DNA of 64,000 nucleotides from the IMG/VR virus record IMGVR_UViG_3300050132_000112, positions 9,356-73,355 of that record. One strand, written 5' to 3'. Below are positions 10,753-64,000 of this stretch, in pieces (position 1 is the first letter of the stretch; the number at the start of each line of letters is the position of its first letter). Below the pieces are notes generated by a model. It was given only the letters and a program-made list of their open reading frames with translations, had not been told where the DNA came from and ran no database searches. Source of the stretch: a virus. The translations under genes and the position numbers were made by a program.

Positions 10753-10780
10753 ACTTATATATTATTACCATAGATAACAT
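10660..10780 (+). ncRNA. Putative TnpB omega/reRNA overlapping the tnpB 3' end
   Basis: GC-rich paired 3' tail (GCGGTGGGGTACGCCGTGAAAAGCCTG...GAAACAGG) at the usual omegaRNA position; boundaries uncertain. Confidence 0.5.
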
Positions 10781-10801
10781 GACTAATTCTATTTTACCTC
10801 T

Positions 10802-10951
10802 ATGCTTGAAAACTTCCTAAAAACCAACAGAGCCTACTATGACTACGCCATAAGCAAGGGACTAACCGCTTTGGCTGCGGCGATTAAACAGTCGATAGAA
10901 AAAACGATTGCCAATAAACAAGTTAAACCGAAACAATTAAAATTATTTTAA
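10802..10951 (+). CDS. 49-aa protein ending in beta-clamp-binding-like motif QLKLF
   Basis: MLENFLKTNRAYY...KPKQLKLF*; abuts the next gene. Confidence 0.6.
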   Translation: MLENFLKTNRAYYDYAISKGLTALAAAIKQSIEKTIANKQVKPKQLKLF

Positions 10952-10952
10952 G

Positions 10953-11564
10953 ATGAAAAAACCGACAAAACAAAACTGCATTGATTTTTTAAATAAAATA
11001 GCAGACATTAAAAAATGGGACCCACAGTATGAGGGTGGTGAACCAATTGACACTTATTATTCAAAAACCGACGGAAGTTATATTTGCTTTGTAAATAATG
11101 CAGAGGATGTCGCATGGATGATTAAAAAGGGAATTACAGACGAAATACAATCAATAAATGATGGTAAGGTTGCCTGTATAGGTTTTAACCCCTTAGAACA
11201 AAAATGGTATGGATGGTCACATAGGGCAGTTTATGGGTTTGGTATAGGTTCTGAATGTAAAAAAGGGGATTGTGGATATGTGCCAACTGATTTAAATGAT
11301 TTTCTTGAGAGAAGTATTAATTTTTGGAGTGACGATGCACACACAAATGTTTCTGCTATTCCCGCCGTAAATGACAAAGGTATTCATGGTGCACAGGTTA
11401 CTTGGGAATATGTACCTGAATTTGTTCCAAATAAAAACCTACACGGAACTATTGGAGAAACATTTGTTTATCCACCTCAAAAATATGGTAAGGGTGAATG
11501 GGTTGCAACGAGCATGGAAGATGCTAAACAAATGGCTATTGATTTTGCAGAAGGAGTATCATAA
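10953..11564 (+). CDS. Conserved phage hypothetical protein
   Basis: IGFNPLEQKWYGWSHRAVYGFGIG motif. Confidence 0.7.
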   Translation: MKKPTKQNCIDFLNKIADIKKWDPQYEGGEPIDTYYSKTDGSYICFVNNAEDVAWMIKKGITDEIQSINDGKVACIGFNPLEQKWYGWSHRAVYGFGIGSECKKGDCGYVPTDLNDFLERSINFWSDDAHTNVSAIPAVNDKGIHGAQVTWEYVPEFVPNKNLHGTIGETFVYPPQKYGKGEWVATSMEDAKQMAIDFAEGVS

Positions 11565-28903: not shown

Positions 28904-28921
28904 ATGCTATTTTTGGTTCAA

Positions 28922-29734
28922 ATGAATTTACTCTCAAAAGAAAAAAAATACCACTTTACTTATCAGACCAAAAACCTGATTAATGGAAAAACCTATATAG
29001 GTGTTCATAGCACTAATAATGTGTATGATTCTTATTTGGGAAGCGGTGATAAACTTTTTTATAGTATTAAAAAATATGGCAGACATAATTTTAAAAGAGA
29101 AATATTAGATTTTTTTGATACAAAAGAAGAAGCTTTAGCCGAAGAAGAATTTTTAGTTACAAAGGAGTATGTTGCCCTTAGAGATAATTACAATATTAAT
29201 TTAGGTGGATTTATGCCACCAAGTTTTTTAGGAAAGAAATTAAGCCCGGAACATCGACAAAAACTAATTACAAGTAAGATAGGGTATGTGACATCGGAAG
29301 AAACTCGTAGGAGAATAGGGGAGGCCTCTAAAGGGCGACCATGCTCTCAAGAAACAAGAAAAAAAATATCATCTATTACGAAAGGAAAGATAAATTTAGG
29401 ACCCAAATCGCCAGAACACTTAGCCAAACTTCGTGAATCTTGGAAACACAAACCACCTGTATCTGCCGAAACAAGAGCAAAGCAAAGTTTAAGGCAAAAA
29501 GGCAAAAAAATGCCGGAGGGGAATGGGTATAAAATTTGGGAGAAAAGGCGTTTAAGCATTAAGCCGATGTGGATAGTTGTTTATTCTCATGTTGGGAATG
29601 TAAAAATTGGCATGTTCCCGACTATAAAGGAAGCCTCTATTTCGGTTGGAACATCAATCGCAGCAATTACAAAGTTGCTAAATGGCACCACAAAAAAGCA
29701 TAATAAGTTTAGAATAATAAAAGGATTAGCATGA
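28922..29734 (+). CDS. GIY-YIG homing endonuclease with NUMOD3 repeats (SegB-like)
   Basis: FTYQTKNLINGKTYIGVH, YLGSG, repeated SEETRRKI units. Confidence 0.9.
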   Translation: MNLLSKEKKYHFTYQTKNLINGKTYIGVHSTNNVYDSYLGSGDKLFYSIKKYGRHNFKREILDFFDTKEEALAEEEFLVTKEYVALRDNYNINLGGFMPPSFLGKKLSPEHRQKLITSKIGYVTSEETRRRIGEASKGRPCSQETRKKISSITKGKINLGPKSPEHLAKLRESWKHKPPVSAETRAKQSLRQKGKKMPEGNGYKIWEKRRLSIKPMWIVVYSHVGNVKIGMFPTIKEASISVGTSIAAITKLLNGTTKKHNKFRIIKGLA

Positions 29735-37862: not shown

Positions 37863-40800
37863 ATGGCAGAAGAAATAGAAGCACCCGTTCAAGAACAACA
37901 ACCTACACCCTATTTAGATAAGGTGTATTCTGCTTTAAAGGATAATCTGTCAGGTTTCAATAAAACACCCGAACAGTTTAAAGAGGCTATGAAAGATAGT
38001 ACATATGCCGCTAAAGCCTATGGCGCACTTAAAGACAATCTTTCGGGGTTTAATAAACCACAGGAAGAATTTTATAAGGAGGTCGGTATATCAAAAAACG
38101 GCTTGCGCAGCGGTGCGCCAAATACCTCAAACTCATTATCAAATGGATTGGGGCTTATCCCAAATTCCCCGCAAAGTATTGATTATAGTCCTGTACTTCC
38201 TCAAAACAGGGCAGATATAAAAGCACAGCAACAAGCTAAACTACAAGCGCAAACAGACCACTTTAAGCAACTAAGGGCAGAACTTGACCCCGAAGCACAG
38301 AAAGGGTTTGATAAGGCGTTAGAATTAGGCAATACCGCTCATCCTGACCAATTAGGCGCACCCACAAAAGAAGATATCGACCACTATAACTTTATGCAAA
38401 CACCCGTAGGTAAAGTATTAGGTACAGCGGGTTATATTGGTTCGGAAGCAACTCATGGCACATTACAGGTAGCTAAAGGGATAGCCCATTTAGCTAATAT
38501 GGCAAACAACCCTGCCGCAGCGTTAACAGGAATGCCTGAACCAACAGACGAAGCGTTCGCCAAAGCCGATAAATTAGCTGATTTAGGCTTAACCGACAAC
38601 GATAAAGCAGGTATTGAGAATATGTCTATCCCTACTGTTAATGGGCATAGGATAGGAATAGGCACAGGAATACAGGCAGCAGGACAATTGGCAAACTTCG
38701 CACCTATGGTTGCCGCAGGCGAGGAAATGGGGCTACCTAAAACCATGTTGTATTTACAGGGGATGGGGCAAATCAAGGAGATTGCTGATAAAATACCCAA
38801 CTTAAATCCATTAGCAAAAGAGGCACTCATACAGGGAGGCGGTTTAGTCAACATGGCATTAGCGGACTTTGGGGGTAAGTATTTCAACAAAGGAGTTTCA
38901 AACGCTGTTAAAGACAAGGTTATTCAAGGAATAGCCGCAGATGCGTTACAAGAGGCCGCAGAAAAAGGATTAGGGGAAGATGGGTATAAAAACTTGTTAA
39001 CTGGTAAGGCGCAATCATTCGCTGAAAAGTTTGAAAGAGCACCAAGCGAAGTTTTAAAGCACTACGTCGATGCCACCAAGACTTTTACTAAACTCAATGT
39101 TGAAAACTATGCAGTCCATAAAGGGGTTGATGCTTTGCAAACCGCCAATGGTGACAAACCTGTATTCAATGAGAATTTGGGTAATTTAGCCGAGAATGAA
39201 ATGAACACGCTAACTAAGCAAGTACCTCTGTTTGGTAGTATCGGTGCATTAGGTGCTGCATCAAAGCTATTGCCTAATTCGGGTTATGAGAATGAAGTTA
39301 CCAAGTCCATTATAGACAATCCTACGCAGGCTAACATTGATAACGTAAAGTACGCCTTAGAACAGCATGGTAACGAGAAAGGGTGGTCACAGGAAGAGTT
39401 AAATGCTACTCACGACCATGTTGATAAAATAGCCAAAGCCGTTCAATCATTGCCACCGACGATTAAGGATAAAACTAAAGCCGTAGGACTGGTTTTGGAT
39501 AGGAATGAGTTACAATCCGAACTTGACCAATCTATTGCAGAACGTAAAAAATTAGACCCTGCGGTTGCGGAATTGCCTTCACCTAAAGAACAATACCTTA
39601 CCGATAAGGTTGAACAGGCTAATGATAAATTGCGTGGCTTAGTGACCGACCAAAAGCCAACCTATTCAAAAGGATTGGCAGTAAATAATGAAGATGGTAA
39701 GTTCTTTAAAACAACGGGCGATACCAAGGAAGAAATTGAGCCAAGCCGTTATGAACTGGAAAGGACTGAACGGGATGCTAAAAAGAAAAACGAAATAACA
39801 GAAGTATCTAACATAAATCAAACAGAAAATGGCAACAATGATGAAAAAATCGGCGGTGGTAATGAAGAAAAAGAAAGCCCCGAAAGCAAAGGTGAAAAAG
39901 AAAGCAATTCAGGGACTACCGAAAATGGAAAAGAAAATGACCAAGAAAGCGGTAGCAATCGGAAAGCAGAAGGGAATGTAGTTAAAGCGGGTGCGGATGA
40001 AACTGTACCCGTTACTAACGACCCTATCCGTCAAAAAGCCATTGACGCTATTACTCATGGCATAATAGGTGACGGTCAAAGAAAGCCGGGGGACGTATCA
40101 CCACGCTTTGACTTAGATATGACTACCGATGAGCAAGAACGTGCCATACGTCATATCATGCAGGGCAAAACAGATAGTAAATCTGCAAGCAAAATGATTG
40201 ATAAGGTTGTTGGGTTTGAGAAGAAAGGCGAATATCCTATTATTGAGGGATTGGGCGGTACTACCGACCGTTCTAAATTTGCTACACCCGAAGAAATACA
40301 ACAGCACATTGACGATGCCAAGTCATTTAAACTGGCAAAAGAACAAGATATTGAAGCCAACAATAAAGGCTTACACGATTTAGGAATAACACACCAAGAT
40401 GTTGCAAGGCATGAGGAATACCTAAATAGCAAAGAAGCAAATCACCAATCAGATGCAGATATTGAAAAAAGAATGTCTGAATTGGATAATTACCCATCTT
40501 TTTCACCCGAAAGACACGAGTACAATCAACTTGAAAAAGAAATGGAAAAACGAGAAAAAGATAGCGTTTTTTCAGTCCCATTGGACAAAGCAAGCGATGC
40601 CATAGATGCGTTGCTGAAAAAAAATAAAGAAATGCCTAATGGGTATGGGGCTTTCATAGAAAAACGTGATGCAAGAGAATCTAAAGCGGTTATTGAAAGA
40701 TACACAACAGATAGGAATGAATTAAGTGAAAGAGATATTAAATCTGATTTTAAAGGGGCTTTAATGGGCAACCCTGATACATGGTATGCCGATGGGTTAA

Positions 40801-43800
40801 AGTTGAGGGAATCGGCTAATTTGGCTGCTGAAAGAGGTATAAATATAGGCGATTTGCTAAAAAATGTTCAGGATGAATTTACAAAGGACGGTTATGACGA
40901 TAAAACATCAAAACAGGTCATAGCAAGAATGTTATCAACTATAATAAATAAAGAAAATGGAAAACAAAACGCAGGAGAACAAGGAACAACCGATAACGGA
41001 CGACCAACTGAAAACACTGCAAGCGATGTACAACGCCCCGAAAATGACGAAAAGGCAAGCGTACCACAAAGTACAGGCGGTGAAACAACACAAAGCAAGC
41101 CTGAAAGCCGAAAGGGAAGTTTAAGCGAAGATAAGGCGAAGCGACTAAAAGAACTTCGTAAAACATTTTCAGGTCAATTAAACGATGTAACCCGTATTCC
41201 TACCTTATTAGCAAATAAAGAGTTTAGGGAATATGCAGGGTTGGTGTTTGAGGACACTTTGGGTGATTTTAAAGCCTTTTCTAAAGAACTGATAGACAAT
41301 GTTGGTGAAAAGATAAAAGAGCACCTACCGAACTTATATAAGGAATTAGGTGGTAAATTACCCGATGAAGAACCTAAAGAACCAACTGGTATCAGGAATG
41401 CGGATGTTGAGACAGAACGGGGCAAAGTTGTACCTCGTGATAAAATGACCAAAGACCAAATCGAGGCAGAGGGTAAGCGTTTAGTTGATGAGGGTGAGGT
41501 TGACCCCGACGAATTGGCTCAACAGGTTATAAAGGATAAAAAGCCTATTACTGCCGAAGAACAAGCGGCGTTGCTTTACCATAAAACAAAACTGAAAAAA
41601 GAACAGCGTTCTATTTTAAAGGACAATGAAGAAAACCCTGATAATGTAACCGAAAATCAAATTAAATACGCTAAAAACGCAGATTTGATAGATGCTAATC
41701 AACAGGCAACTGAAATAGCGGGTAACGTTACGGGTCGTGCTTTGGGCTTTAGAACCGAAACCATGAACGAGGATTTCTCCCGTAATTCAGTTATGCGCAG
41801 GGCTAAGATGGCGAACCAAAATGAACCATTAGAACCCAAGGACGAAAAGGCATTAGAAGCACATACCAAACGTATTGAGGAACTTGAAAACAAACTGTCT
41901 GACAGGGAACAACAGATACGTAAACTATACGAAGACGGCATTGTAAATAAGGTTAACAGAAATGCTCATGCCGAAGAACGTGCCGCCAAGCGGGATGTAA
42001 CGAAAGCATCGTTGCGTAAAGAACGTGAGGGTTTATTGGCAGACTTACATTTAATTGCTAAAAAATCACGTGGAACATTAGGTGCCAATAAAATACCATT
42101 AGACATGGTTGTACCGCTTACTAAGTTAGCACGTAACTATGTTCTTGACGGCGTAGTAACCCTATCAGGCGTAGTGGATAAACTGTACACAGACCTTAAA
42201 GACCATATTGAAGATTTAAACAAGGAAGATATTAAGGATATTGTCAAAGAGCAATTCTCTAACTACCTGCATGAGCAAAATGCACTTCGTTTAAAGCGAT
42301 CTAAAACTTTATTACAGACCAAGCTTGATAAACTTAAAGAGCAAAACACTACGGGTAATGTAGAAAAGGATGTTAGGCGTAAAATAGAAGTAGATAACGA
42401 CTATTTAAAAATACGTGCTGACATCAATAGGGAGCAAACCTTAATCAATAAGAAGATAGCCGACATAGAACAATCTAATAAGTCTACCCAAAGAAAAGTT
42501 GTTGACCTTGCCGTTAAATATGGTAGACAGGCTAAACTTGCCGCTGTTAAGGTGTTAGGTAAATTGGCGGCTGCAGGATTGACTACGTTGACTTTAAAGC
42601 CCATTACAGAGGGTATAGGCACATTTTATTCAGCATTACTACCAAAGATAGCAGATAAGGCTACAATTGAAGGTAAGGGAAATTTAAAGGTTTTAGCGAA
42701 TGCGTATGCAAAGGCAGCAACATTGGGCATGGAGGATGCTTATAAAGAGTTAAACATTAAAAAAGGCGGTCAATCGGATTTGTCGGCATTATATGGCAAG
42801 TTTCAGGTTTCTAAACTACCTGCGGAAGCGGCAGATTTCTTTGGTCACATTCACTCCGCTATAAAAGCACCTGTTAAAAGATTTGCATGGGAATACTCTT
42901 ATGCCAAACGGATGGAAAACCAAATGCGGCAAGGTATCGATGTTCAAGACCCTGTTATAGATGCTAAGAACCGATTGGATGCCTATAAGGATGCTGAGAG
43001 AGCAATATTCATGGGGGATAACGTAATATCTAAAGCCTACGAAGCCGCTTTGTCGCCGATGGAAAAGGGTAGCAGTAACTTCGGGAAAAACATTGCGGCT
43101 ACTGCCCGTATTCTATTACCTTTCGTTAAAGTACCAACCAATATTGCTTTATCAACAGGTCGCCATGCTTTTGGGTTATTGATGGGTGGTTCTAAATTAG
43201 CACAGATAGGCACATCATCAGCGTTGCGCATGGCGGGTGCTGAAAAAATGGCTAAGATTATCCATACGGGCATGGGTGAGTTAACGCCCGAAGAGAGCGA
43301 TATGGTCATGAGAAATCTCAAAGTAGGTTCAATCGGCGGTGCTGCTTTATTATTGGGGTTCTACAATCCTAAAAATGTAGGTGGCTTTTATCAAGAGAAC
43401 GAACACCGTAAAAAAGGCGATGCTGAGGCAGACGCTTTAAAGATATTTGGACATTCCGTTCCTAAATTCCTGACAGAGCACCCGATATTCCAAGCCATGC
43501 AAGTAGGTGCAACATTCAGAAGGGTATTAGATGCCCATAAACACAAAGATGATAATGTGAATGCAGCTACATTAGCAACAGTTTCGGGATTAGCAGAGGG
43601 CATACCGTTGGCTAATGAGGCGAAAACATTTACCGATTTATTCGGAAGCGATACAAAGAAGTTCAATAAGTTTATTTCAAATGTGGTTAAGGGCGAAGTT
43701 GAACCGTCCGTATTACAGGAAATGGCGCAAGTTACCGATACTAAGAACGGTGCTGTAATGTCATTGAATAGTGATAATCAAAATAAACGCTTCCCCGATA

Positions 43801-43886
43801 AGAAACATGGCTTATTGAAATACATGAAGCAAGACCTAATGATAGGTATTCCCGGTGCTCGCAAATACGTGCCTAAAAAACATTAA
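37863..43886 (+). CDS. Large ejection/polyvalent virion protein (2007 aa)
   Basis: Third ejection-module gene; mosaic domains; C-terminal PFVKVPTNI membrane-associated region. Confidence 0.75.
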   Translation: MAEEIEAPVQEQQPTPYLDKVYSALKDNLSGFNKTPEQFKEAMKDSTYAAKAYGALKDNLSGFNKPQEEFYKEVGISKNGLRSGAPNTSNSLSNGLGLIPNSPQSIDYSPVLPQNRADIKAQQQAKLQAQTDHFKQLRAELDPEAQKGFDKALELGNTAHPDQLGAPTKEDIDHYNFMQTPVGKVLGTAGYIGSEATHGTLQVAKGIAHLANMANNPAAALTGMPEPTDEAFAKADKLADLGLTDNDKAGIENMSIPTVNGHRIGIGTGIQAAGQLANFAPMVAAGEEMGLPKTMLYLQGMGQIKEIADKIPNLNPLAKEALIQGGGLVNMALADFGGKYFNKGVSNAVKDKVIQGIAADALQEAAEKGLGEDGYKNLLTGKAQSFAEKFERAPSEVLKHYVDATKTFTKLNVENYAVHKGVDALQTANGDKPVFNENLGNLAENEMNTLTKQVPLFGSIGALGAASKLLPNSGYENEVTKSIIDNPTQANIDNVKYALEQHGNEKGWSQEELNATHDHVDKIAKAVQSLPPTIKDKTKAVGLVLDRNELQSELDQSIAERKKLDPAVAELPSPKEQYLTDKVEQANDKLRGLVTDQKPTYSKGLAVNNEDGKFFKTTGDTKEEIEPSRYELERTERDAKKKNEITEVSNINQTENGNNDEKIGGGNEEKESPESKGEKESNSGTTENGKENDQESGSNRKAEGNVVKAGADETVPVTNDPIRQKAIDAITHGIIGDGQRKPGDVSPRFDLDMTTDEQERAIRHIMQGKTDSKSASKMIDKVVGFEKKGEYPIIEGLGGTTDRSKFATPEEIQQHIDDAKSFKLAKEQDIEANNKGLHDLGITHQDVARHEEYLNSKEANHQSDADIEKRMSELDNYPSFSPERHEYNQLEKEMEKREKDSVFSVPLDKASDAIDALLKKNKEMPNGYGAFIEKRDARESKAVIERYTTDRNELSERDIKSDFKGALMGNPDTWYADGLKLRESANLAAERGINIGDLLKNVQDEFTKDGYDDKTSKQVIARMLSTIINKENGKQNAGEQGTTDNGRPTENTASDVQRPENDEKASVPQSTGGETTQSKPESRKGSLSEDKAKRLKELRKTFSGQLNDVTRIPTLLANKEFREYAGLVFEDTLGDFKAFSKELIDNVGEKIKEHLPNLYKELGGKLPDEEPKEPTGIRNADVETERGKVVPRDKMTKDQIEAEGKRLVDEGEVDPDELAQQVIKDKKPITAEEQAALLYHKTKLKKEQRSILKDNEENPDNVTENQIKYAKNADLIDANQQATEIAGNVTGRALGFRTETMNEDFSRNSVMRRAKMANQNEPLEPKDEKALEAHTKRIEELENKLSDREQQIRKLYEDGIVNKVNRNAHAEERAAKRDVTKASLRKEREGLLADLHLIAKKSRGTLGANKIPLDMVVPLTKLARNYVLDGVVTLSGVVDKLYTDLKDHIEDLNKEDIKDIVKEQFSNYLHEQNALRLKRSKTLLQTKLDKLKEQNTTGNVEKDVRRKIEVDNDYLKIRADINREQTLINKKIADIEQSNKSTQRKVVDLAVKYGRQAKLAAVKVLGKLAAAGLTTLTLKPITEGIGTFYSALLPKIADKATIEGKGNLKVLANAYAKAATLGMEDAYKELNIKKGGQSDLSALYGKFQVSKLPAEAADFFGHIHSAIKAPVKRFAWEYSYAKRMENQMRQGIDVQDPVIDAKNRLDAYKDAERAIFMGDNVISKAYEAALSPMEKGSSNFGKNIAATARILLPFVKVPTNIALSTGRHAFGLLMGGSKLAQIGTSSALRMAGAEKMAKIIHTGMGELTPEESDMVMRNLKVGSIGGAALLLGFYNPKNVGGFYQENEHRKKGDAEADALKIFGHSVPKFLTEHPIFQAMQVGATFRRVLDAHKHKDDNVNAATLATVSGLAEGIPLANEAKTFTDLFGSDTKKFNKFISNVVKGEVEPSVLQEMAQVTDTKNGAVMSLNSDNQNKRFPDKKHGLLKYMKQDLMIGIPGARKYVPKKH
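39829..39981 (+). CDS. Nested +1-frame Lys-rich micro-protein (50 aa)
   Basis: MATMMKKSAVVMKKKKAPKAKVKKKAIQGLPKMEKKMTKKAVAIGKQKGM; A-rich leader. Confidence 0.5.
   Translation: MATMMKKSAVVMKKKKAPKAKVKKKAIQGLPKMEKKMTKKAVAIGKQKGM
40957..41124 (+). CDS. Nested +1-frame small protein (55 aa)
   Basis: MENKTQENKEQPITDDQLKTLQAMYNAPKMTKRQAYHKVQAVKQHKASLKAEREV; leader ATAATAAATAAAGAAA. Confidence 0.45.
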   Translation: MENKTQENKEQPITDDQLKTLQAMYNAPKMTKRQAYHKVQAVKQHKASLKAEREV

Positions 43887-44379: not shown

Positions 44380-44931
44380 ATGCCAACGCAAGCACAAATA
44401 CAGCAAACTATCTATTCAGGTCAACTGATGTTCGCCAATTTGGTTAATGTTGACCGTATCTTAGTTTCTAACGGTTTCCAAACAGAGAATAGCGGCTTAA
44501 TAAAGCAGTATCAAAACAACGTACAGGCACTTATTTACAGGCTTAACCTGACCGACTATACCAGTAAGACAACCCAAACAATATATGACCGATTAAACTC
44601 GCTTATAGGGGTTGATACTACCGTTAATACGTTTGACCCTAATTATACCACACCGGGGGTCGTAATCAACAATATTATTATAAACGAACCAATAACATTG
44701 AATAAAACAGCGGCAGACTTGGTATATGATTCGGTTGCAGATGCCTATTATTTACCGTTCCTTAACAATAATGGTGTTGGATTACCTTTAAATAGTGTTC
44801 CAGTATCAGTAGTTTTAAACGGCGTTCAAATAAGCCCCGCCTTAGACGAAACGCATATGCCGCAAAGGTTGTACGGATTTGCTAACGCAACACCCCCACA
44901 AGTCATCACCGTAACCGTAGTAACACCATGA
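44380..44931 (+). CDS. Tail-associated structural protein
   Basis: Synteny with the tail fibre. Confidence 0.6.
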   Translation: MPTQAQIQQTIYSGQLMFANLVNVDRILVSNGFQTENSGLIKQYQNNVQALIYRLNLTDYTSKTTQTIYDRLNSLIGVDTTVNTFDPNYTTPGVVINNIIINEPITLNKTAADLVYDSVADAYYLPFLNNNGVGLPLNSVPVSVVLNGVQISPALDETHMPQRLYGFANATPPQVITVTVVTP

Positions 44932-47900
44932 GAAAACTATTAACTATATTACTACTATTCATTACTTCGGTAAGTTTTGCGCAAACCTATTCAAACACAG
45001 GTACGGCTAACTTACAACGTGCTTTATTCGGCGGTGACACCTTGTACCGTAATAACATGGGTGCTTTAGGGAATGTTAATTGGTATGATAAATATCAAGT
45101 TGATAGATTAATTAACAGTCTTTCTACTGGCTATGTACCAAACTCAAGAACCCTAACTGTTAATGGCGTATCTTTTGATCTAACCAATAATCGCTCATGG
45201 AACGTAGGTACGGTAACAGCATTAAGTAAAACAGATGGTTATGGATTTCTATCAACCCTAACCAACCCGACCATTACACCTAATTTTGCTGGGCGTATAG
45301 ACACTTCTGTAATTGCAAGCCTACTACACTATAACACAACTATCGGAATGGCTACAGCGGCTTATTTGGCGTTAAAAGCACCTTTAGCAAGCCCTGTATT
45401 AACAGGCATTCCCACAGCACCTACGGCTACGTTGGGAACAAATACCAATCAGATAGCTACCATGGCGGCTATACAGGCGGCTATTGCCGGTTCAGGCGCA
45501 GGAAGCGTGTCAACCGTATCAGTGGTAACGGCTAATGGCGTTTCGGGAACGGTAGCCAATCCAACAACTACACCTGCGATTACCCTAACTTTAGGGGCGA
45601 TAACACCAACATCAACAAACGGAGTAAGTGCCGCTACCATGGCTTTTAACGACGCTACAAGCAGCATACAGACACAATTAAATAGTAAACAAGCATCATT
45701 AGGGTTCACACCTGAAAACATGGCTAATAAGACCGCAACCGCATCAGCAAGCACCACTACTTATCCTAATTGGAATGGATTAGAAACGTATGTTGCAGCA
45801 CAAGGGTTTGGCAATGGCACAGTAACCTCTTTTGGTAAGGTTGACCAATTCGGTATAGTGTCAAGTGTAGCCAATCCGACTACCACTCCTGTTTATACGG
45901 CAAAAGTGGATAGTACGACAGTTGAAAGTAAGGTAAACTTTAACACTACTATTGGTACAGCCACATCAACCGCATTATCGGGGAAGCAAGCGACAATAGG
46001 TTATACTACTGAGAATATTGCTAATAAGGCAACCGATTTTACTACTTTAAATAATACATTATACCCAACAACCCAAGCGGTTTCTAATTATGTTTCTGCT
46101 AACTACGTACCATTAAGTAGAACATTAACTATTAATGGTACGACACAAGATTTATCAACAAACAGAACTTTTACAATATCAAGTCTGCCACCATCAGGAA
46201 CAGCGGGAGGGTCGTTAGGTGGTACATATCCTAATCCCACAGTAGTTACGAATGCCAATCTTACTGGTATTGTTACAAGTATAGGAAATGCCACATCCAT
46301 AGCTAATGGTGCAATAGGAAATTCCTTGCTTACTAATTCAAGTATCACAGTTAATGGTACACCAATATCTTTGGGTAGTTCTGTGACGGCTGTTTCATCA
46401 GTAGGCGGTACAACAAACAGAATCACTTCTACAGGTGGTACAACACCAGTAATAGATATCTCTGCATCTTACATAGGGCAATCAAGTATCACTAATGTTG
46501 GTACTATATCTACGGGTACGTGGAGCGGCTTATTTGGAGCAGTTAGTGGGGCTAATCTTACCAATATAACTCCTGCTAATATAGGTACAGGTACTGCACC
46601 AATAAATATTACAGGGAATGCAGCAAGTGTTACATTTAATAGTGTAGTAGGAGGTGGACCTTACCCATTATTGGTTAATAGTGCTGGTTCGGTTGGTTAT
46701 AATTCACTTATTAATGTAGACCCTATTACGAGTACAATTTTTGCCGACCATTTTGCAGGCTCTGCTCTAAGATTAGACACTCCTCGCCTCATACAAGGTA
46801 TCCCGTTTGATGGAACTGCCAATATTAATATAATTAATGGGACAGGGTATGTAAAGTCTACAGGTACAACACTAAGCTATGATAACTCGGTGTTTAATCT
46901 TCAAACGGTTACTACCTTAGGTAATTCTACTACGATTGCGCCATTTTTTAATGGAGGAGCGATGTTTGATGGGAATATCGGTGGTTTTAGTCCGGGTAGA
47001 TTTGATGCTAAAATTACAGCAACAAATGCCGTTACGGGGGGGCATACAATAGTAGATTTGATAAATGTTCTTGCTAATGATGAGGCAGCAATAAACTTTA
47101 CAGGTATGTTAAGCGATAGCTCCTTTGTTCAAATGGGAGCAATTGGGATGTTTTGGGAGAATTTCGACAATAATCCGAGTACTCGTATCCCTACTCTTTA
47201 CTGGCATGGTAATGGATGGAATGGAGATAATGAACCACTTATTCTTAAAAGCTATAATACAGTAGTTTTAGGAGCAGGTGCAACATCTGCATTGCCATTT
47301 AAAGATGCTTATGCAGCTAATACAACGCTTGTAAAAAACAATCTTGTAACAGAATTAAATAACACGTTTAACGGGAGTATACTTGCAGGAACATCAGGCT
47401 CTAACCTTTTATTAGAAAAGTCAACAGGAGCAAGTGTTGTGTTTAATAGAAGTGGAACAATGAACGCTTTAATGGAAGACGATGGAAATAAATTTGGCTT
47501 TTATTATGGCACGTCGCCAACTTTATCACTTACTGTAGGCTCAACAATAGTGGGAAGCGTCCCTATCTCTGCAACAAACTTATCAGGAACAAATACTGGC
47601 GATGAAACTACAGGAAGAATTAATGCATTATATGGATATACGCCTGCTAATGGTGCAAATTATGTTTTAAAATCAGGGGATGATATGACCGGGCATTTAG
47701 GTATAACTGTTACATCTGGCAGCAACTTATATTTGGATAGGTCTACAGGGGCATCAATGGCCTTTAGGCGTTCAGGAACTTTGGCTGCTTTGATAGAAGA
47801 AGATGGTAATGCTTTTGGTTTTTACACAGGTACGGGAAATACTCCTGCCGCATCCATATCACCAACAGCAGCTACTTTTTATGGTAGTCTTTCTGTGCCA

Positions 47901-48365
47901 TCTATTAAGCCCGCAGTTGTATATCAAACATCAGCGGGAACGGCTGGAACAGATAGTATAGCAGTTAAAATTGGAAGTACTGGTAAGTTAGGAGCTATTG
48001 CCGCTTCATCAGTGCCTATTTACTCAGAAAGTTCATGGACACCTACTGGTTCAACAACAATATCGGTAACTTCAGCCACATATACAAAAATTGGAAATCA
48101 AGTATTTGCAAGGTTTAAAATTAGTATTAACACAAATGTAAGTGGGAGTACATTTTCTATATCAGGATTACCTTTTGCAAACTCATCGAGTAGTTATGGT
48201 TCAGTCAATTTTAGTTTAATAACAAACGGTACACTTTATACAGGCGAGGTACAACCCGGTAATAGCAATTTTAATATGTATACCGCAGCCGGGGTTTTAG
48301 TCACAAATCTACAAGTTAGTAATTCATCTATTGATGGAGTGGTTATTTATAATACAACGAATTAA
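44928..48365 (+). CDS. Tail fibre / receptor-binding protein with N-terminal signal peptide
   Basis: LKAPLASPVLTGIPTAPTA, GGTYPNPTV, duplicated modules, C-terminal YTKIGNQV..GLPF tip; MRKLLTILLLFITSVSFA|Q start. Confidence 0.8.
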   Translation: MRKLLTILLLFITSVSFAQTYSNTGTANLQRALFGGDTLYRNNMGALGNVNWYDKYQVDRLINSLSTGYVPNSRTLTVNGVSFDLTNNRSWNVGTVTALSKTDGYGFLSTLTNPTITPNFAGRIDTSVIASLLHYNTTIGMATAAYLALKAPLASPVLTGIPTAPTATLGTNTNQIATMAAIQAAIAGSGAGSVSTVSVVTANGVSGTVANPTTTPAITLTLGAITPTSTNGVSAATMAFNDATSSIQTQLNSKQASLGFTPENMANKTATASASTTTYPNWNGLETYVAAQGFGNGTVTSFGKVDQFGIVSSVANPTTTPVYTAKVDSTTVESKVNFNTTIGTATSTALSGKQATIGYTTENIANKATDFTTLNNTLYPTTQAVSNYVSANYVPLSRTLTINGTTQDLSTNRTFTISSLPPSGTAGGSLGGTYPNPTVVTNANLTGIVTSIGNATSIANGAIGNSLLTNSSITVNGTPISLGSSVTAVSSVGGTTNRITSTGGTTPVIDISASYIGQSSITNVGTISTGTWSGLFGAVSGANLTNITPANIGTGTAPINITGNAASVTFNSVVGGGPYPLLVNSAGSVGYNSLINVDPITSTIFADHFAGSALRLDTPRLIQGIPFDGTANINIINGTGYVKSTGTTLSYDNSVFNLQTVTTLGNSTTIAPFFNGGAMFDGNIGGFSPGRFDAKITATNAVTGGHTIVDLINVLANDEAAINFTGMLSDSSFVQMGAIGMFWENFDNNPSTRIPTLYWHGNGWNGDNEPLILKSYNTVVLGAGATSALPFKDAYAANTTLVKNNLVTELNNTFNGSILAGTSGSNLLLEKSTGASVVFNRSGTMNALMEDDGNKFGFYYGTSPTLSLTVGSTIVGSVPISATNLSGTNTGDETTGRINALYGYTPANGANYVLKSGDDMTGHLGITVTSGSNLYLDRSTGASMAFRRSGTLAALIEEDGNAFGFYTGTGNTPAASISPTAATFYGSLSVPSIKPAVVYQTSAGTAGTDSIAVKIGSTGKLGAIAASSVPIYSESSWTPTGSTTISVTSATYTKIGNQVFARFKISINTNVSGSTFSISGLPFANSSSSYGSVNFSLITNGTLYTGEVQPGNSNFNMYTAAGVLVTNLQVSNSSIDGVVIYNTTN

Positions 48366-49140: not shown

Positions 49141-49710
49141 ATGATAGCAAACGATATAGTCAATCTTGCCAATCAATACGCTGCGGCAGGAATAACCGAA
49201 ATTCAGCCCAACAATGGATGGCAACCAAATGCTAAGTTTCCGACCTATGAGCAAGATATGGTTAATCTTACAGGATGGTATCATGGTGCTGAATGGTGTA
49301 GCGCACAGGCTATCTTAACATGGAAAAAGGCTTATGCGGGGAATGCAATCATGTTAGGCATTATTAACCGCCTTGTATCACTTAATTCACAAGCCATGGG
49401 CAATCAGTTCCATGCCGATAAATACTGGCCTACATCGTCTAATGTGCCTCAATTAGGCACTATTGTAATTTGGGCGTTAGGTGATAGTTTAACTACGGGT
49501 CATGCAGGTATTGTAACAGCGATTAATGGTAGCACATTTACATCGGTTGAGGGTAATACTAGCTTGCCCAATGCAGGCAACGAAAGGGAGGGTTGGACAG
49601 TTGCATCCCATATTCATACAATAGGGTTGCCTCATTCAACTTTTAACCTTAATTTGTCACGATTTATTTATCCTTTAGAAAGTTATAACCCATTAGTAAT
49701 TTCAGAATGA
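49141..49710 (+). CDS. CHAP-domain endolysin
   Basis: EWCSA, GHAGIV, SVEGNT catalytic motifs. Confidence 0.88.
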   Translation: MIANDIVNLANQYAAAGITEIQPNNGWQPNAKFPTYEQDMVNLTGWYHGAEWCSAQAILTWKKAYAGNAIMLGIINRLVSLNSQAMGNQFHADKYWPTSSNVPQLGTIVIWALGDSLTTGHAGIVTAINGSTFTSVEGNTSLPNAGNEREGWTVASHIHTIGLPHSTFNLNLSRFIYPLESYNPLVISE

Positions 49711-50333
49711 TAGGAATTTACAAAATTACCTCTCCAAGCGGTAAAATATATATTGGCTCAAGCATCGATATAAAATATCGTATCAAATATTACAAAAACC
49801 TATGTTGCCAAGGACAGGTTAAACTGTATAATTCATTGAAAAAATATGGATGGCATAAGCATAAATTTGAAATTGTAACTGAGTGTTCTGTTGAAGAATT
49901 ATATCTACTTGAAAGAACGTATGGTGAAATGTTTGATGTTCTCAGTAAAAACGGACTTAATTTAATATTACCAAAGGTTGGTGAAAACAAAGTCGGTGTT
50001 TCAGAAGAAACAAGAGAAAGAATGCGTAATAGAAAAGGCGGTTATGCATCTCGACCTCACACCGAATCTGCAAAAGAAAAAATAAGACAATTTCAAACAG
50101 GCAGAAAGCATACTGCCGAACACAGAAGAAAGGTTTCTGAAAACAACGCCCGAAATAATGCCAAGATTGTTGTGGATATGGAAAATGGTATTTTTTATGA
50201 TTCAATAAAAGAAGCGGCTTGGGCAAGAAACGAAAACCATAGTAGTCTTAAAAATAGAGTAAACGGCTATTCACCAACATATACACCTATAAAGATTTGT
50301 GGATGGTTGAATGAAAAAAGAAATGTAGCATAA
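49707..50333 (+). CDS. GIY-YIG homing endonuclease (NUMOD3)
   Basis: GIYKITSPSGKIYIGSS, HTESAKEKI. Confidence 0.9.
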   Translation: MIGIYKITSPSGKIYIGSSIDIKYRIKYYKNLCCQGQVKLYNSLKKYGWHKHKFEIVTECSVEELYLLERTYGEMFDVLSKNGLNLILPKVGENKVGVSEETRERMRNRKGGYASRPHTESAKEKIRQFQTGRKHTAEHRRKVSENNARNNAKIVVDMENGIFYDSIKEAAWARNENHSSLKNRVNGYSPTYTPIKICGWLNEKRNVA

Positions 50334-53898: not shown

Positions 53899-54306
53899 TC
53901 ATTTGTCTAATCGGTTAAGTGATAAGCCCAATTCCTTTGCCTTGGTTGGATGTAACTCAATCCAATGGTGACAGTTTTCGCAGCAAGCTAAAAACGTTGT
54001 ACTATCAAGTAAATATTCGCCCCGACCTTTTTTATGGTGAATTTGGGTAGAATAATTGGTGCAACCGTCTAACTGTGCCTCACATATAGGATAATTCTTT
54101 AAATAAACTCCTCTAAGCGTTAGATAGGTTGCCATTAGCTTTTTATGCTTGTCTGACATGGGCTTAACCCGGTATGGTTTATTAACCCTTTTGTCACTTT
54201 GTTTTAGAGTTGGCTCTAAAGCCCTCTTAATCTTATAGTGATGTAGGCACAAACCACCGCTAAAGATGGGAGTGTTACAACCTATAATTTTACAGATAGT
54301 TGGCAT
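53899..54306 (-). CDS. HNH-type nuclease (NinG/DUF968-like)
   Basis: CEA...C...QIHHKKGRG...LACCENCHHWI. Confidence 0.75.
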   Translation of the reverse strand: MPTICKIIGCNTPIFSGGLCLHHYKIKRALEPTLKQSDKRVNKPYRVKPMSDKHKKLMATYLTLRGVYLKNYPICEAQLDGCTNYSTQIHHKKGRGEYLLDSTTFLACCENCHHWIELHPTKAKELGLSLNRLDK

Positions 54307-54308
54307 GC

Positions 54309-55944
54309 TTACATGGATATAATTCTTGATTTAACCCACCCATAGTCTTCAAACGGCATTATGGGTAGCGGAATTTGTATTAAACTAAACTTATATTCCA
54401 TTTCCACCCATCCTAACCAATAAAACTCGCCATCGGTATGTAAAAACGGAAACCAAAGAAACGTTCTTTTTATCTTAGTATCGCCAAATTTTGGTTCGGT
54501 AACTTTAGGCTTATCGGGTTGTTTTTTCCATTGTATCATTTCTTTTTTTCCTTATCATTTTCTTTAAACATTCCTCTTGGGATTAGAAATCCAGCCTCCA
54601 TCAGCTTAGTTACTGGTTCATCAAATTCAGGAATTGACATCATATTATAGGTCGTTTCATATTCTTGACCGTATTCGCCACTTGCCTTTAAGCGTTCAAT
54701 CCTTGCATCTATTTCATCCCAATCTTTTTGGGTCATCCATTCCCTTGCTTGGTCACCTATTGGTTCCATGCCTTTGCGTAGTTTTTGTTTATAGGTTTTA
54801 AACTGTTTCATTTCTTCCTCTCTTTCTTAAAAGCATTATCCATGGCAATAGCAAAGTCTGTTTTAATTTTTATATATAAACTCAAGATATGTTATTTTTA
54901 ATAATTCGCCTTTAATATTTTCTTTAACAAATGACCAATAGCTACTGCCACTTTCACCCCATACATACGAAATCCGTTTTACATTTTTATTCCTCACATA
55001 AAACCAATCGTCAATGAGTTGTTTAGAAGTATCTTCTTTGGATAGGAATATTTCTTTAATTCCTAATGCATCCATTGAATTAAAAAGTGCCATGATATCT
55101 TTATGCGTTATTTTTTCCATCTTAATTTCTCCCATTTTTTACTGCCGTATATGTTTAAGTCGCTAATGCTTTTGGCTATTACTTCTTTAATAGGTTGGGG
55201 TTCTTTATCCCGATAGTCCTTTGTGGAGGCAATTAACTCGTATTTAACGCCGTTATAGGTTTTAGTTCTGCTCATGGTTAGTTACCCCCATTGGTTTGGG
55301 TGAGATTAGAAATAAACTGTTTAGCGGCATCATTTGATATTGTGTGGATGCGTTCCCTCCCGTGTTCGTCTGTTTTAAAGTTTATTGAAAAGTTTTTCCC
55401 TTCCATATATTGCCAAAAAGCATCTTGAAATGCCATAGCAATGTTGGCTATCCATGTTTGCTTATATTCATCGTCGCATCTTAATTGATAGGTAAGAACA
55501 TGAACCGCTTGCGGGAGGTTATCAACGAAAGTCCAATCATTACCATTTTTAAGGGTGTCATACTCTTTTCTGTCAATTATTAACAACATAAGGGCTTTCT
55601 TATCGGGGTCAAGCACTATCTCTTGCGCTACATCGCCGGGAATACCGACTTTAACATGTCCATTGTGTCCTTTTTTATCGACCGACACAATTTCACTACA
55701 GATGCCTACGTTAGCAGTCCCGTTTTTAGCATCCCCGTCATTTAGTTTTTGTAAAATTTCAAATAGTTTCATGTTGTGATTTTATTTTGTTAATCATATC
55801 TGTTAGTTCCCTGTCGGTTAGTTCATACCCTGTTAATATTTTGGTGTGAATACGTATGTACTCTCTGTCCTCTAAACACGCTAATTCGTGCCCATTTAAT
55901 GGGCACCCACATTTACGAATCGAACAATAATGGAAATCAGTCAT
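54309..55944 (-). other. Run of small hypothetical early genes (54309-54539, 54536-54811, 54863-55135, 55278-55772, 55759-55944)
   Basis: Tightly packed - strand ORFs. Confidence 0.6.
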
Positions 55945-56009
55945 GTTTACTTAAGTTGCTGTTTTAAGTTTTGGACTATATTGCATGTTTTATATTTTTT
56001 AATTAACTA

Positions 56010-56468
56010 TTTAATAATCGACTTCCTGAGAGAGGGAACTGAAAGAGTAGAGGAGAAAAAGAGGGTTTGCCCCCTTACCCCCAAAGATTAATTGAGGATA
56101 AAGGAACAAACTTCTAAAACCTTTTTCAATCCAACTTCCGTCGGGTCGGTCACAGTATATCGTTTCGGTTCTAACCGGAGAATGGGTTGCCTCACTCCTG
56201 GTATGCGTAATACTAACTTTCGTTACGGGTGCCAATAAACCTATTGGTGTGTAGTTCCTTTTCATCCCGTTATTATATATTCGGGAGTGAGTATTCTTAA
56301 AGGTTAACTTGCCGAGAAAATTATCATTGCTTACCTGTCGGTTGCTATACAACGCTTTGGTAGGACTTACGGCTTTCACCGGAATCTGTACAAACAATCG
56401 TACAGGCAAGCAATTAAATATCTTTAGACTGATGAGGGAATAGCCTACCAAAGCTTGTTCCGACAATG
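56010..56468 (-). ncRNA. Candidate large structured ncRNA
   Basis: TAGATTTG promoter at 56472-56479 (- strand); nested helices, a 10-bp pseudoknot, GNRA loops, terminal GGGGGUAAGGGGG. Confidence 0.6.
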
Positions 56469-56485
56469 ACACAAATCTAGTGAAA

Positions 56486-56800
56486 TTATTTTTCAATTCG
56501 TTTCCTTTTAATTTTTTCTACATTTTGTGCAGGTACGCATTCAGCCTCTACAAGAGGGTAGATACGGTTTCTAACCTTGTCGGGGTTGTCAATTAGCTTT
56601 TGGCGTTGTTCAGCCTCGTATTTAACCAATTCAACGGGCAAATGGTCAAAGGAATATACCTCAACTATATTTGGGTCGTCTGTTTTCTTAAACCAAAAAG
56701 GAATGTATAACCATTCGTTATTTCGGTCTAACTTGACGGCGTTCCATGCGTTTGCAAAGGATGCCATCTCATCTGTTAATTTTATTTTCTGTCCGTTCAT
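56486..56800 (-). CDS. Hypothetical protein
   Basis: Intact ORF. Confidence 0.6.
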   Translation of the reverse strand: MNGQKIKLTDEMASFANAWNAVKLDRNNEWLYIPFWFKKTDDPNIVEVYSFDHLPVELVKYEAEQRQKLIDNPDKVRNRIYPLVEAECVPAQNVEKIKRKRIEK

Positions 56801-56830: not shown

Positions 56831-57388
56831 CTATTTAGAATCGTAAAGCAATCTGTTAACGAAAGCCTCACATTCTTTTTTATTCTTTAAAATAACAATT
56901 TCAGGTTCTTCGTCATTCAGATGTTTTAAGACACTTTTAAGCATTTTCCACCTAATAGCACCCTGTTGTGTTTGAAAACCCTTAGAATCGGCTATTATGC
57001 CGTGTATTGGCAAAAAGAAATCCACCGTTAATGTCACAGCCCTCACCGCTTCACCACGATACCTAAATTTGTTCTGTAAAATGTATTCTTTCTGAAATTC
57101 AAAATGTATATTGGCATTAGTTAATAAGCCGTGTAGATACGCCTCTAAACGGCTATCAAACTTTATCCCGTCAATCTCGACCTTAACTGCATTTTTAATC
57201 TTACGGTTTTCAGTGGGTTTTTTACACATTGGATGTTGTAATAATGCTTCGTCCCTATTAACGCCCGTAACAGTAATTAACGGCAACTTATCAAGTTTTT
57301 TAGCCACCTGACTTGATGCCTTGTTATCAACCTCAATCAAACCTTTTTTACGGAGATCATCTTGTGACCAATGAGTGTTATTTGCCAT
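56831..57388 (-). CDS. DUF1064-like PD-(D/E)XK nuclease
   Basis: DGIKFDSRLEA...Q..Y.L...VDF...ADSKG. Confidence 0.8.
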   Translation of the reverse strand: MANNTHWSQDDLRKKGLIEVDNKASSQVAKKLDKLPLITVTGVNRDEALLQHPMCKKPTENRKIKNAVKVEIDGIKFDSRLEAYLHGLLTNANIHFEFQKEYILQNKFRYRGEAVRAVTLTVDFFLPIHGIIADSKGFQTQQGAIRWKMLKSVLKHLNDEEPEIVILKNKKECEAFVNRLLYDSK

Positions 57389-61458: not shown

Positions 61459-62142
61459 TTATACTTTAGGTGTTAGTTCAGCCCTACGTTTAGTAACAAG
61501 GCTTTTAAATTCTTCATTGCTTATTAAATGCGCACATGCAGGGTCTTTAACTATTGAGTTTAAAGCGGGGATAGTTTGTGCCATACCTATTGCTTTACGG
61601 TGTGCGTCTGTTACCTCTCCCTCTGGTTGTTTACCGTTCATCATGCTTACCTTTTCGGCGGTTGTGGGTTCGGGAACTATTTTAGGTTGGGTAGGTTCAT
61701 CCGCAGGTTTTCTACCGGGGTTATCTATGTCGTCCTCGTCCGTAGCAATGTGGAAGTACTTTAAAAGGAAATACCGTTCGGCGTATGTGAGGGCAGAACC
61801 AATCCCCTTATCCCAATCATTTTGACCGTTTGCGCCGAATAGATTTTCGTCCTTATCGCCTGTCGCAGCGTCTACCCATGTAAACTTCATCATTACTTTA
61901 GAAAGTATTTCGCTTTTAGGGCGTGGGGTGTTACCACCTACTGTATAATCTTGACGAGTATTTTCAATAGACAATATTTCTTGCTTTAATAGCAATCCTG
62001 CTTCTGTCCATAATGGGCGCAAGTGATCTAAAACCTTATCGCCTGTTGTGTATTTATAGGTCATCGCTTGTTTATCCTTGCCTAACCCCTTTACTTTCTC
62101 TTGAATTGAAAGTAGCTTTTGATATATGTTTAATTTTTCCAT
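61459..62142 (-). CDS. erf: ERF-family single-strand annealing protein
   Basis: IYQKLL.IQ, YKY, DKGIGSALTYAERYFLLKYFHIATDEDD. Confidence 0.85.
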   Translation of the reverse strand: MEKLNIYQKLLSIQEKVKGLGKDKQAMTYKYTTGDKVLDHLRPLWTEAGLLLKQEILSIENTRQDYTVGGNTPRPKSEILSKVMMKFTWVDAATGDKDENLFGANGQNDWDKGIGSALTYAERYFLLKYFHIATDEDDIDNPGRKPADEPTQPKIVPEPTTAEKVSMMNGKQPEGEVTDAHRKAIGMAQTIPALNSIVKDPACAHLISNEEFKSLVTKRRAELTPKV

Positions 62143-63296: not shown

Positions 63297-64000
63297 CTAT
63301 ACGTCAATACCTGTAATTTCTTTGAATACGTCCTTGTTGAAAAATGGAAGTGTAGTAAATACCCTTTTCTTAGCATCGGTTAGGTTATGCCAAAGGTTTG
63401 ACCACGCTTCGTGCATGGAGATTGATTTAAGATAGCCACCTGTTGTTTTATAGGTAGGAAACTTAGTCTTTTCGTCGGCTGTCATTTCACTGTCCCAAAC
63501 CCAAATATTAGGGTTAAGATTGTTCATTATACGACATGCTTCGTGTTGTTCCCAATCTTTTACTAAGATGTCGGTTTGTACGTTGAAAAGTATCAGCTTA
63601 GGATTACGGTCGGTGCAGAATGCACCGCCGTTCCTGTAGCCTGTGTTACTGTCGCCTGTGTTCCTGTCGCCTGTGTTCCAGTTGCCTGTGTTACTGTAGC
63701 CTGTGTTCCTGTAGCCTGTGTTCCTGTCGCCTGTGTTCCTGTCGCCTGTGTTCCTGTAGCCTGTGTTCCAGTCGCCTGTGTTCCTGTCGCCTGTGTTCCT
63801 GTAGCCTGTGTTACTGTCGCCTGTGTTCCTGTCGCCTGTGTTCCAGTTGCCTGTGTTCCTGTCGCCTGTGTTCCTGTAGCCTGTGTTACTGTCGCCTGTG
63901 TTCCTGTCGCCTGTGTTCCAGTCGCCTGTGTTCCTGTCGCCTGTGTTCCTGTAGCCTGTGTTCCAGTCGCCTGTGTTCCAGTTGCCTGTGTTCATGTCGC
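63297..64000 (-). CDS. NTGxx pentapeptide-repeat protein (5' end probably beyond the window)
   Basis: Over 20 NTG(D/N/Y)(W/R/S) repeats; C-terminal GGYLK...EAW...LP.F...F.EITGI domain. Confidence 0.85.
   Translation of the reverse strand, partial: DMNTGNWNTGDWNTGYRNTGDRNTGDWNTGDRNTGDSNTGYRNTGDRNTGNWNTGDRNTGDSNTGYRNTGDRNTGDWNTGYRNTGDRNTGDRNTGYRNTGYSNTGNWNTGDRNTGDSNTGYRNGGAFCTDRNPKLILFNVQTDILVKDWEQHEACRIMNNLNPNIWVWDSEMTADEKTKFPTYKTTGGYLKSISMHEAWSNLWHNLTDAKKRVFTTLPFFNKDVFKEITGIDV
63630..64000 (-). repeat. 15-bp coding tandem repeat
   Basis: GCCTGTGTT(C/A)C(T/A)GT(C/A/T) units on + strand. Confidence 0.9.

Follow-up and report, generated by a model that had tools for sequence, protein, structure and literature searches.

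The window analysed here, a 64,000-nucleotide (nt) stretch corresponding to bases 9356-73355 of the 73,355-bp virus record IMGVR_UViG_3300050132_000112 (IMG/VR), which CheckV rates as complete, carries on its minus strand an element of approximately 413 nt that matches no Rfam family and is most likely a new structured RNA rather than an ordinary gene. Its nucleotides, rather than an encoded protein, are probably what selection maintains. For the element as a whole we favour, at a probability of roughly 40%, a composite interpretation in which an RNA gene, equipped with a promoter of the Bacteroidota type and a terminator, would be embedded in an early operon of the phage, and the open reading frame (ORF) that runs across it would serve ribosome read-through. 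All positions are those of the window, and the features discussed are collected in Table 1.

Nucleotide conservation and the open reading frame

Relatives of the element were reachable through protein searches only. The source record calls the overlapping 161-codon ORF as a protein (P0001), and seven homologous ORFs, all of 138-164 amino acids (aa), were found in metagenomes. A word-indexed search returned P0002, exhaustive HMMER searching returned P0002-P0006 (five in total), and a profile search added P0007 and P0008. The first five are singleton clusters from Logan, JGI or NCBI/ENA assemblies and the last two come from Logan and JGI. No homolog DNA was found by blastn (distant mode) and tblastn against GenBank phages and plasmids, nor by scanning viral, metagenome and genome contigs with the ORF and the family alignment. 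Routes through the neighbouring genes led only to distant phages, none with an nhmmer or tblastn match to the element. A search with a 44-aa peptide from an alternative frame gave nothing at E <= 1, and was insensitive enough to miss even P0005.

The evidence for selection on nucleotides comes from P0005. When this homolog was compared with the window DNA by tblastn, matches appeared in the frame of the ORF and in both other frames, including an off-frame segment with 15 of 20 residues identical, ten of them consecutive (E = 5e-8). A frameshift-aware dynamic-programming alignment follows the frames 1>2>0>1>2>0 with a score of 252, compared with 147 for the best single frame; allowing frameshifts adds 0-23 to the scores of the remaining six homologs, and no more than 14 when P0005 is shuffled (60 shuffles). 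Because P0005 matches in three frames, the nucleotides are conserved and the register is not. This pattern points to selection on RNA or DNA that tolerates single-base insertions and deletions, rather than on a protein, and we consider a function at the nucleotide level probable. Conservation of the 161-aa ORF at the amino-acid level, which the initial annotation had named as the outcome that would speak against an RNA, was not what the homologs revealed, P0005 reading the same nucleotides in other frames.

Conservation across the family is mosaic and modular, with two types of 5' module and three types of 3' module. The 5' part of the window sequence is common to P0003 and P0004 (tblastn identities of 62% and 54% over 53-57 residues), and its middle part to P0006 and P0007. 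A different 5' module is present in P0002, P0007 and P0008, and a different 3' module in P0004 and P0008, which are about 90% alike there and share a hydrophobic C-terminal stretch of around 30 residues. The 5' domain of the RNA is shared with P0003 and P0004 in the frame of the ORF, and with P0005 in a different register. In P0002, the flanks around the most conserved core (Table 1) are unalignable to the window.

The initial annotation had judged the ORF not to be protein-like, and codon usage, periodicity, composition and AlphaFold2 modelling all bear this out. The codon-usage log-odds score of the frame is 0.019, compared with 0.357 +/- 0.113 (minimum 0.086) for 48 phage ORFs, and lies also under the mean of 85 wrong-strand ORFs (0.130). 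Three-base periodicity is absent from the frame (chi-square p = 0.46) and present in eight of ten neighbouring genes (p <= 0.016), the exceptions being an HNH gene (p = 0.55) and a 129-aa ORF. The translated composition resembles random sequence, with Ser, Leu, Arg and Pro high and Asp, Glu and Lys low. PHROG holds no family for the ORF and Pfam gave a sub-threshold hit only. AlphaFold2, supplied with the eight-sequence alignment, returned a predicted local distance difference test score (pLDDT) of 42.1, a predicted template modelling score (pTM) of 0.11 and no secondary structure; the ESM Atlas model of the product has a pLDDT of 0.32. Thus the region has the gene-length open frame of an ordinary gene, and lacks amino-acid conservation in a single frame, gene-like codon usage, periodicity and composition, and a foldable product.

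The frame contains no internal stop, compared with 5-16 in the other five frames. In 200,000 first-order Markov sequences of the same composition, the probability that any of the three frames is open was 1.55e-4. The frame is open in all eight members, that is, the window and the seven homologs, and each of the seven starts with M, mostly followed by K, at the equivalent place. It begins upstream of the -7 promoter box described below, as had been noted initially, and its stop codon (56013-56011) lies 44 nt past the U-run of the terminator-like hairpin. A pure noncoding RNA leaves this open frame unexplained. The initial proposal of an independent large RNA therefore holds as far as a nucleotide-level element outside the Rfam families is concerned, but it did not anticipate a frame open in eight of eight members.

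Predicted promoter, terminator and RNA folding

The host is very probably a member of the Bacteroidota, as the initial annotation had assumed. The large terminase of the phage matches 87 GenBank phage records, from phages of Flavobacterium (68), Cellulophaga (15), Tenacibaculum (2), Maribacter (1) and one unclassified, all distant (top identity 26.6%), and a Shine-Dalgarno (SD)-like motif precedes just 9 of 91 ORFs. Few SD-like motifs are expected for Bacteroidota (PMC7366714, excerpt), and the host assignment follows from this scarcity together with the terminase matches to phages of Flavobacteriia. In this phylum, TAnnTTTG is the -7 consensus of the primary sigma factor, accompanied by a less constant TTTG at -33 (PMC7366714, excerpt). 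Such a -7 motif, TAGATTTG, is present where it had been proposed, the predicted transcription start site agrees, and the box falls within the first ten codons of the overlapping frame.

On the sense strand, TAnnTTTG occurs at 2.41 sites per kb in intergenic sequence (12 sites in about 5 kb, a set that included a 104-aa gene by mistake and whose length is slightly inflated) and at 0.56 per kb in coding sequence (33 in 59 kb), a 4.3-fold difference. The site at 56479-72 is the only intergenic one on the sense strand in the leftward gene block of the window. All eight family ORFs permit a -7 site at the same N-terminal place, in the pattern of a codon able to end in T, a codon starting with A, Phe, and a codon starting with G. 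The variable residues change non-conservatively (Arg/Met/Ile/Thr; Val/Gly/Ala) with the first base kept, which points to a nucleotide motif.

The G-tract at 56082-56070, which contains two G5 runs, and the pyrimidine tract that follows it (~56064-56028) were both found as initially described. The G-tract supplies the 3' arm of a hairpin and a pyrimidine stretch supplies the 5' arm; the hairpin has a folding energy of -27.8 kcal/mol and a duplex energy of -27.1 kcal/mol. Together with the adjoining U-run, this hairpin has the features of an intrinsic terminator, and we refer to the predicted site as terminator-like. In six of the eight members, a Gly-Gly-(Lys/Leu)-Gly-like motif followed by Leu-Phe codons is compatible with the G-runs and the U-run, and in these six the frame continues for 18-30 residues past the G-run; the G-run is missing in the other two. 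Judged from these two signals, the odds that the element yields a discrete transcript, running from its own promoter to the terminator, are about even.

Reading the minus strand directly, we recovered every helix and motif of the initial annotation. In the 5' domain these comprise the UGUCGG/CCGACA pairing, the perfect 11-bp helix, the CUGUAC/GUACAG hairpin and the GAAA-capped stem. The 10-bp pseudoknot pairing (56414-56405 / 56335-56326) is likewise present and extends to 13 bp. In the proposed second domain the smaller hairpins exist, but the AAGGAAC/GUUCCUU closure is weak: its duplex is worth -5.9 kcal/mol, a fold constrained to include it is about 20 kcal/mol less favourable, and the terminator hairpin is a competing structure. 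An inverted-repeat search independently recovers the 13-, 12- and 11-bp stems.

The structure exceeds chance expectation. With RNAfold, a 471-nt RNA folds at -132.1 kcal/mol, compared with -111.6 +/- 6.6 kcal/mol for dinucleotide shuffles (z = -3.1), none of 100 shuffles being as stable. It contains four stems with an effective length of at least 10, whose sum of 52.0 compares with 36.5 +/- 2.5 (maximum 46.5) in 1000 dinucleotide shuffles and with 35.6 +/- 3.3 (maximum 48.5) in 433 other 441-nt windows of the same genome. Several of the helices are mutually exclusive. The 12-bp helix has 56454-50 in common with the 11-bp helix and 56111-03 in common with the terminator, and the 13-bp helix overlaps both the 8-bp hairpin and the 6-bp closing helix. 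The minimum free energy (MFE) structure of the full transcript has the 11-bp helix and the terminator (-124.9 kcal/mol), and that of a transcript cut before the 3' arm of the terminator has the 12- and 13-bp helices (-97.0 kcal/mol). These alternative pairings are switch-like and keep a cis-regulatory attenuator alive as an explanation.

The comparison with Rfam 15 suggested in the initial annotation gave zero matches at the gathering score in the whole 64-kb window, and local scans at E <= 10 returned noise only (best 21.6 bits against a threshold of 91 bits). Identities as a riboswitch, T-box, known leader family, RNase P, tmRNA, 6S, GOLLD, ROOL or HEARO were rejected for want of covariance model (CM) matches, and a group I/II intron, likewise without a CM match, appears unlikely. 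As to the exons of a group I intron, the 104-aa upstream ORF has no relatives among viral contigs and neither flank belongs to a family. A retron, diversity-generating retroelement or DRT2 was likewise rejected, with no CM match and no match to RVT_1 (reverse transcriptase) in the 73,355-bp record; control genomes did match. The omega RNA of a TnpB was also considered and set aside, given no CM match and a TnpB gene 45 kb away.

Table 1. Positions and properties of the element, its predicted signals and helices, and selected genes of the window
Feature	Position	Strand	Details
Predicted discrete transcript	56055..56467	-	~413 nt; deduced from the promoter motif and the terminator-like site
161-codon open frame	56011..56496	-	TTG start; overlaps the upstream stop by 11 nt; extends across the terminator hairpin
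Bacteroidota-type -7 motif TAnnTTTG	56479-56472	-	TAGATTTG, read in the sequence; predicted transcription start near 56467
5' domain	56336..56465	-	6-bp closing helix, 11-bp perfect helix, 8-bp hairpin, GAAA-capped stem
6-bp closing helix	56465-60 / 56341-36	-	MFE pair probability 0.67
11-bp perfect helix	56454-44 / 56364-54	-	MFE pair probability 0.97; inverted repeat 100% complementary
8-bp hairpin	56405-398 / 56393-86	-	MFE pair probability 0.96
GAAA-capped stem	56381-78 / 56373-70	-	MFE pair probability 0.94
13-bp alternative helix	56414-02 / 56338-26	-	duplex -18.6 kcal/mol; 10-bp version -12.7 kcal/mol
12-bp long-range helix	56461-50 / 56114-03	-	5' end pairs with the 5' arm of the terminator; duplex -14.6 kcal/mol
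Most conserved core	56116..56202	-	28/29 translated residues identical in P0002; largely in another frame in P0005
Terminator-like hairpin	56055..56111	-	20 bp, 7-nt loop, then CCUCUUUUUC tail
20-bp stem of the terminator-like hairpin	56111-092 / 56084-065	-	
Pyrimidine-rich tract	56028..56064	-	3 of the 37 nt are purines; free of stop codons in all frames
Erf	61459-62142	-	leftward block
Resolvase	56831-57388	-	leftward block
Initiator-like gene and intein-containing DnaB helicase	5977-9224	+	~47 kb from the element

A proposed embedded RNA gene and the competing explanations

In the composite interpretation, a promoter of the host sigma-ABfr type would give rise to a discrete untranslated RNA that stops at the terminator and is the functional product, perhaps acting in trans by binding a protein or another partner early in infection. 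Transcripts entering from the upstream gene would carry the start codon of the frame, which overlaps the stop of that gene. With no stop codon in their way, ribosomes translating the frame would melt the RNA structure and keep both the terminator and Rho loading from taking effect, and by this read-through the embedded RNA gene would not be polar on the genes downstream. In E. coli, translating ribosomes are described as repressing intrinsic terminators that lie within an ORF or shortly behind it (PMC4824070; PMC5021804, excerpts), and pyrBI attenuation as resting on ribosome repression of a terminator (PMC4824070, excerpt). Read-through of this kind would keep the frame open through the terminator while leaving the amino-acid sequence, and even the register, free to change. 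The interpretation covers the register-changing nucleotide conservation, the load of helices, the -7 box and the terminator within the frame, and the open frame itself, yet for the frame taken separately a read-through role is put forward tentatively and with some doubt. Rather doubtful is also the notion of an RNA gene cloaked by the ORF, in which a single stop-free path would be selected only for openness and may hop register as in P0005; in operon transcripts, ribosomes coupled from upstream would erase the fold and the terminator, and promoter-initiated, untranslated transcripts would fold and terminate.

Several points weigh against the composite interpretation. Promoter, terminator and discrete RNA alike are predictions from the sequence, the trans-acting role is a guess in which no partner is named, and the documented suppression of terminators by ribosomes concerns E. 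coli, not Bacteroidota. In the window the start codon of the frame is TTG, with no in-frame ATG before codon 78. TAnnTTTG is not enriched across the whole window (80 sites, compared with 91 +/- 9 expected), TTTG is absent at the canonical -33 spacing, where an ATTG 14 nt upstream of the -7 box is all that is found, and the control on the family pattern is modest, as 32% of shuffled N-termini also permit a compatible -7 site. The GC-corrected MFE is high without being unique, the nearest grid window ranking 8th of 455 and several coding windows folding about equally well. Two covariation proxies on back-translated homologs were powerless: in one, 67% of forced changes were pairable, compared with 60-67% in slid controls, and in the other, compatible helices were equally long in shuffled sequences. 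In P0004 and P0005 a single compensatory swap could preserve the 11-bp helix; degenerate codons allow helices of 14-19 bp in shuffles too, and we make no claim from this. Finally, the homologs were seen as called proteins only, a view in which members without a long ORF are invisible, and the eight open frames of eight are in part a matter of ascertainment. Gene callers presumably reward length in ORFs of poor coding score, as in the length scoring of Prodigal. No protein search was involved in choosing the window, and its own open frame is not accounted for by ascertainment.

Two alternatives account for part of the same evidence. One is a cis-acting leader or attenuator, in which the early genes that follow would be transcribed from the promoter at 56479-72 and the alternative pairings of a 400-nt leader would decide whether the terminator forms. 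The mutually exclusive helices are of the classic kind: 56461-44 pairs either with 56364-54 (11 bp) or with 56114-03 (12 bp, excluding the terminator), and it is the transcript truncated before the 3' arm of the terminator that adopts the 12- and 13-bp helices. The promoter is also the sole intergenic TAnnTTTG on the sense strand of the leftward block, and the next gene starts about 110 nt past the U-run, the downstream early genes lying from 55944 onward. However, the terminator (-27.1 kcal/mol) is far stronger than a 12-bp antiterminator (-14.6 kcal/mol) that spans 340 nt, no riboswitch, T-box or leader family matches, and no ligand or protein sensor can be named. An attenuator also gives no reason for a stop-free frame that begins upstream of the promoter, and we regard it as unlikely. 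The other alternative is a small, very fast-evolving phage protein (about 150 aa) that would be basic and either disordered or hydrophobic at its tail, whose mRNA structure would be incidental and whose mosaic would stem from phage recombination. The frame is open in all eight members across unrelated-looking modules, its chance openness in a window not picked by protein search is as low as 1.55e-4, its start overlaps the upstream stop as in neighbouring coupled genes, and all seven homologs begin with M, mostly then K, at an equivalent place. In addition, P0004 and P0008 have the hydrophobic end of about 30 residues, and the bona fide HNH gene nearby also lacks periodicity (p = 0.55). Against a protein stand the several shifts of register in P0005 relative to the window with the nucleotides kept, a codon usage under that of all 48 training ORFs, the random-looking composition, the AlphaFold2 result (pLDDT 42, no secondary structure) and the absence of a family match. 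A 20-bp terminator-like hairpin lies within the frame, and the long-stem load is the highest in the genome. On balance a protein appears improbable.

The initial annotation had also suggested a replication-primer RNA or R-loop origin, in which the RNA made from the promoter would stay hybridized to the DNA at the G-tract and serve as a primer for DNA synthesis. This is the least supported reading, and a very improbable one. An RNA of about 0.4 kb from its own promoter, with two G5 runs (56082-70) followed by an AT-rich spacer of 66 nt, and its location among recombination genes (Erf, resolvase), would suit a primer. Yet the G-runs are base-paired, making up the 20-bp hairpin together with the pyrimidine stretch that precedes them and with a U-run behind it, and two of the eight members have no G-run. 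The RNA past the G-run is pyrimidine-rich, and pyrimidine-rich RNA gives weak RNA:DNA hybrids. The initiator-like gene and the DnaB helicase lie far away at 5977-9224, and a lambdoid phage origin is usually found in or beside the initiator gene. A repeat search found no iterons within 55900-56600.

An RNA gene embedded in an operon can be compared with several known systems. The primers of ColE1 RNA II and of mitochondrial conserved sequence block II (CSB II) are promoter-driven RNAs with a G-run near the 3' part. The phage element is likewise a predicted promoter-driven RNA of a few hundred nt with a G-run toward its 3' part, but here the G-run is sequestered in a hairpin, the replication genes are elsewhere, and two of eight members have none. 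GOLLD and ROOL, taken here as Rfam families, are large ornate RNAs associated with phages. Like these, the element would be a large multi-helix phage RNA of unassigned function with its own, here predicted, transcription signals; unlike them it is shorter, modular and carries an open frame, and it has no CM match to either. Dual-function small RNAs (sRNAs) encode short conserved peptides, and the DRT2-type system, with its stop-free noncoding RNA template, needs a reverse transcriptase. Both resemble the element in combining a structured RNA with a selected open frame; its peptide, however, is not conserved, and the 73-kb genome has no reverse transcriptase. The intergenic GibS-type sRNAs of Bacteroides, which have a transcription start site and an intrinsic terminator of their own (PMC7366714, excerpt), would share with it a sigma-ABfr -7 promoter, a structured RNA, an intrinsic terminator and the phylum, whereas the phage element is several times longer (~413 nt), phage-borne, located in an operon and overlapped by a stop-free frame. 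No relation to Rfam sRNAs was found by sequence or CM. In pyrBI-type attenuation a frame runs through an intrinsic terminator, a close ribosome blocks the hairpin and the peptide is irrelevant (PMC4824070; PMC5021804, excerpts). The phage frame likewise extends through the terminator hairpin and stops after it. In contrast to pyrBI, it covers the whole structured RNA with 161 codons and has an apparent internal promoter of its own.

If the composite interpretation is correct, the phages of Bacteroidota, whose RNA biology is nearly unexplored, would gain a new family of large structured RNAs. Annotation would face an unusual situation as well, in that this ORF is conserved in its openness and not in the protein that it spells. 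Regions like it are entered by gene callers as hypothetical proteins, and protein databases would then conceal RNA genes of this type systematically. It would also become possible to test how such a gene, strong terminator included, can reside in an operon without causing polarity.

Genomic setting and other features of the phage

The element sits in an early leftward gene block. Minus-strand genes occupy the window from about 51 kb to 64 kb and include an Erf-like annealing protein, a Holliday-junction resolvase and an HNH endonuclease; the plus strand carries the structural, lysis and replication genes. No tRNA or tmRNA was detected in the window.

Near the replication module, a 617-nt gap at the start of the window may be regulatory or origin-like. 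It contains a 19-nt inverted repeat (233-251 / 467-485, 95% complementary, arms 215 nt apart), and the stretch 148-588 has a long-stem score of 48.5, the second highest in the genome. Two 19-nt direct repeats follow at 631-692. The DnaB-like helicase (6705-9224, plus strand, 839 aa) is split by an intein-like insert with matches to the homing-endonuclease families Hom_end and LAGLIDADG_3 at residues ~442-521. Four free-standing homing-endonuclease-like genes are also present, at 4545-5075, 28904-29734 and 49707-50333 on the plus strand and at 53899-54306 on the minus strand. Two are of the HNH type and two belong to PHROG 314, one of these also matching a GIY-YIG family. Four such genes are a high load of selfish elements for a 73-kb phage.

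A TnpB-like protein of 390 aa (9580-10752, plus strand) has OrfB_IS605, Cas12f1-like TNB and HTH_OrfB_IS605 domains and matches the PHROG 'transposase' at E = 4.6e-125. The place to expect a guide (omega) RNA for it is immediately 3' of the gene, at ~10750-10950. The adjoining gene (10953-11564, plus strand) encodes a 203-aa protein matching the Pfam family Tad6, a Type I Thoeris inhibitor (E = 3.5e-40), and is likely involved in anti-defence. Two very large ORFs in the structural region, at 37863-43886 (2007 aa) and 44928-48365 (1145 aa) on the plus strand, have no PHROG match at E <= 1e-5. The leftward block is headed by a pentapeptide-repeat protein of 232 aa (63297-63995, minus strand; Pentapeptide_2, E = 1.5e-32), which is possibly a DNA mimic.

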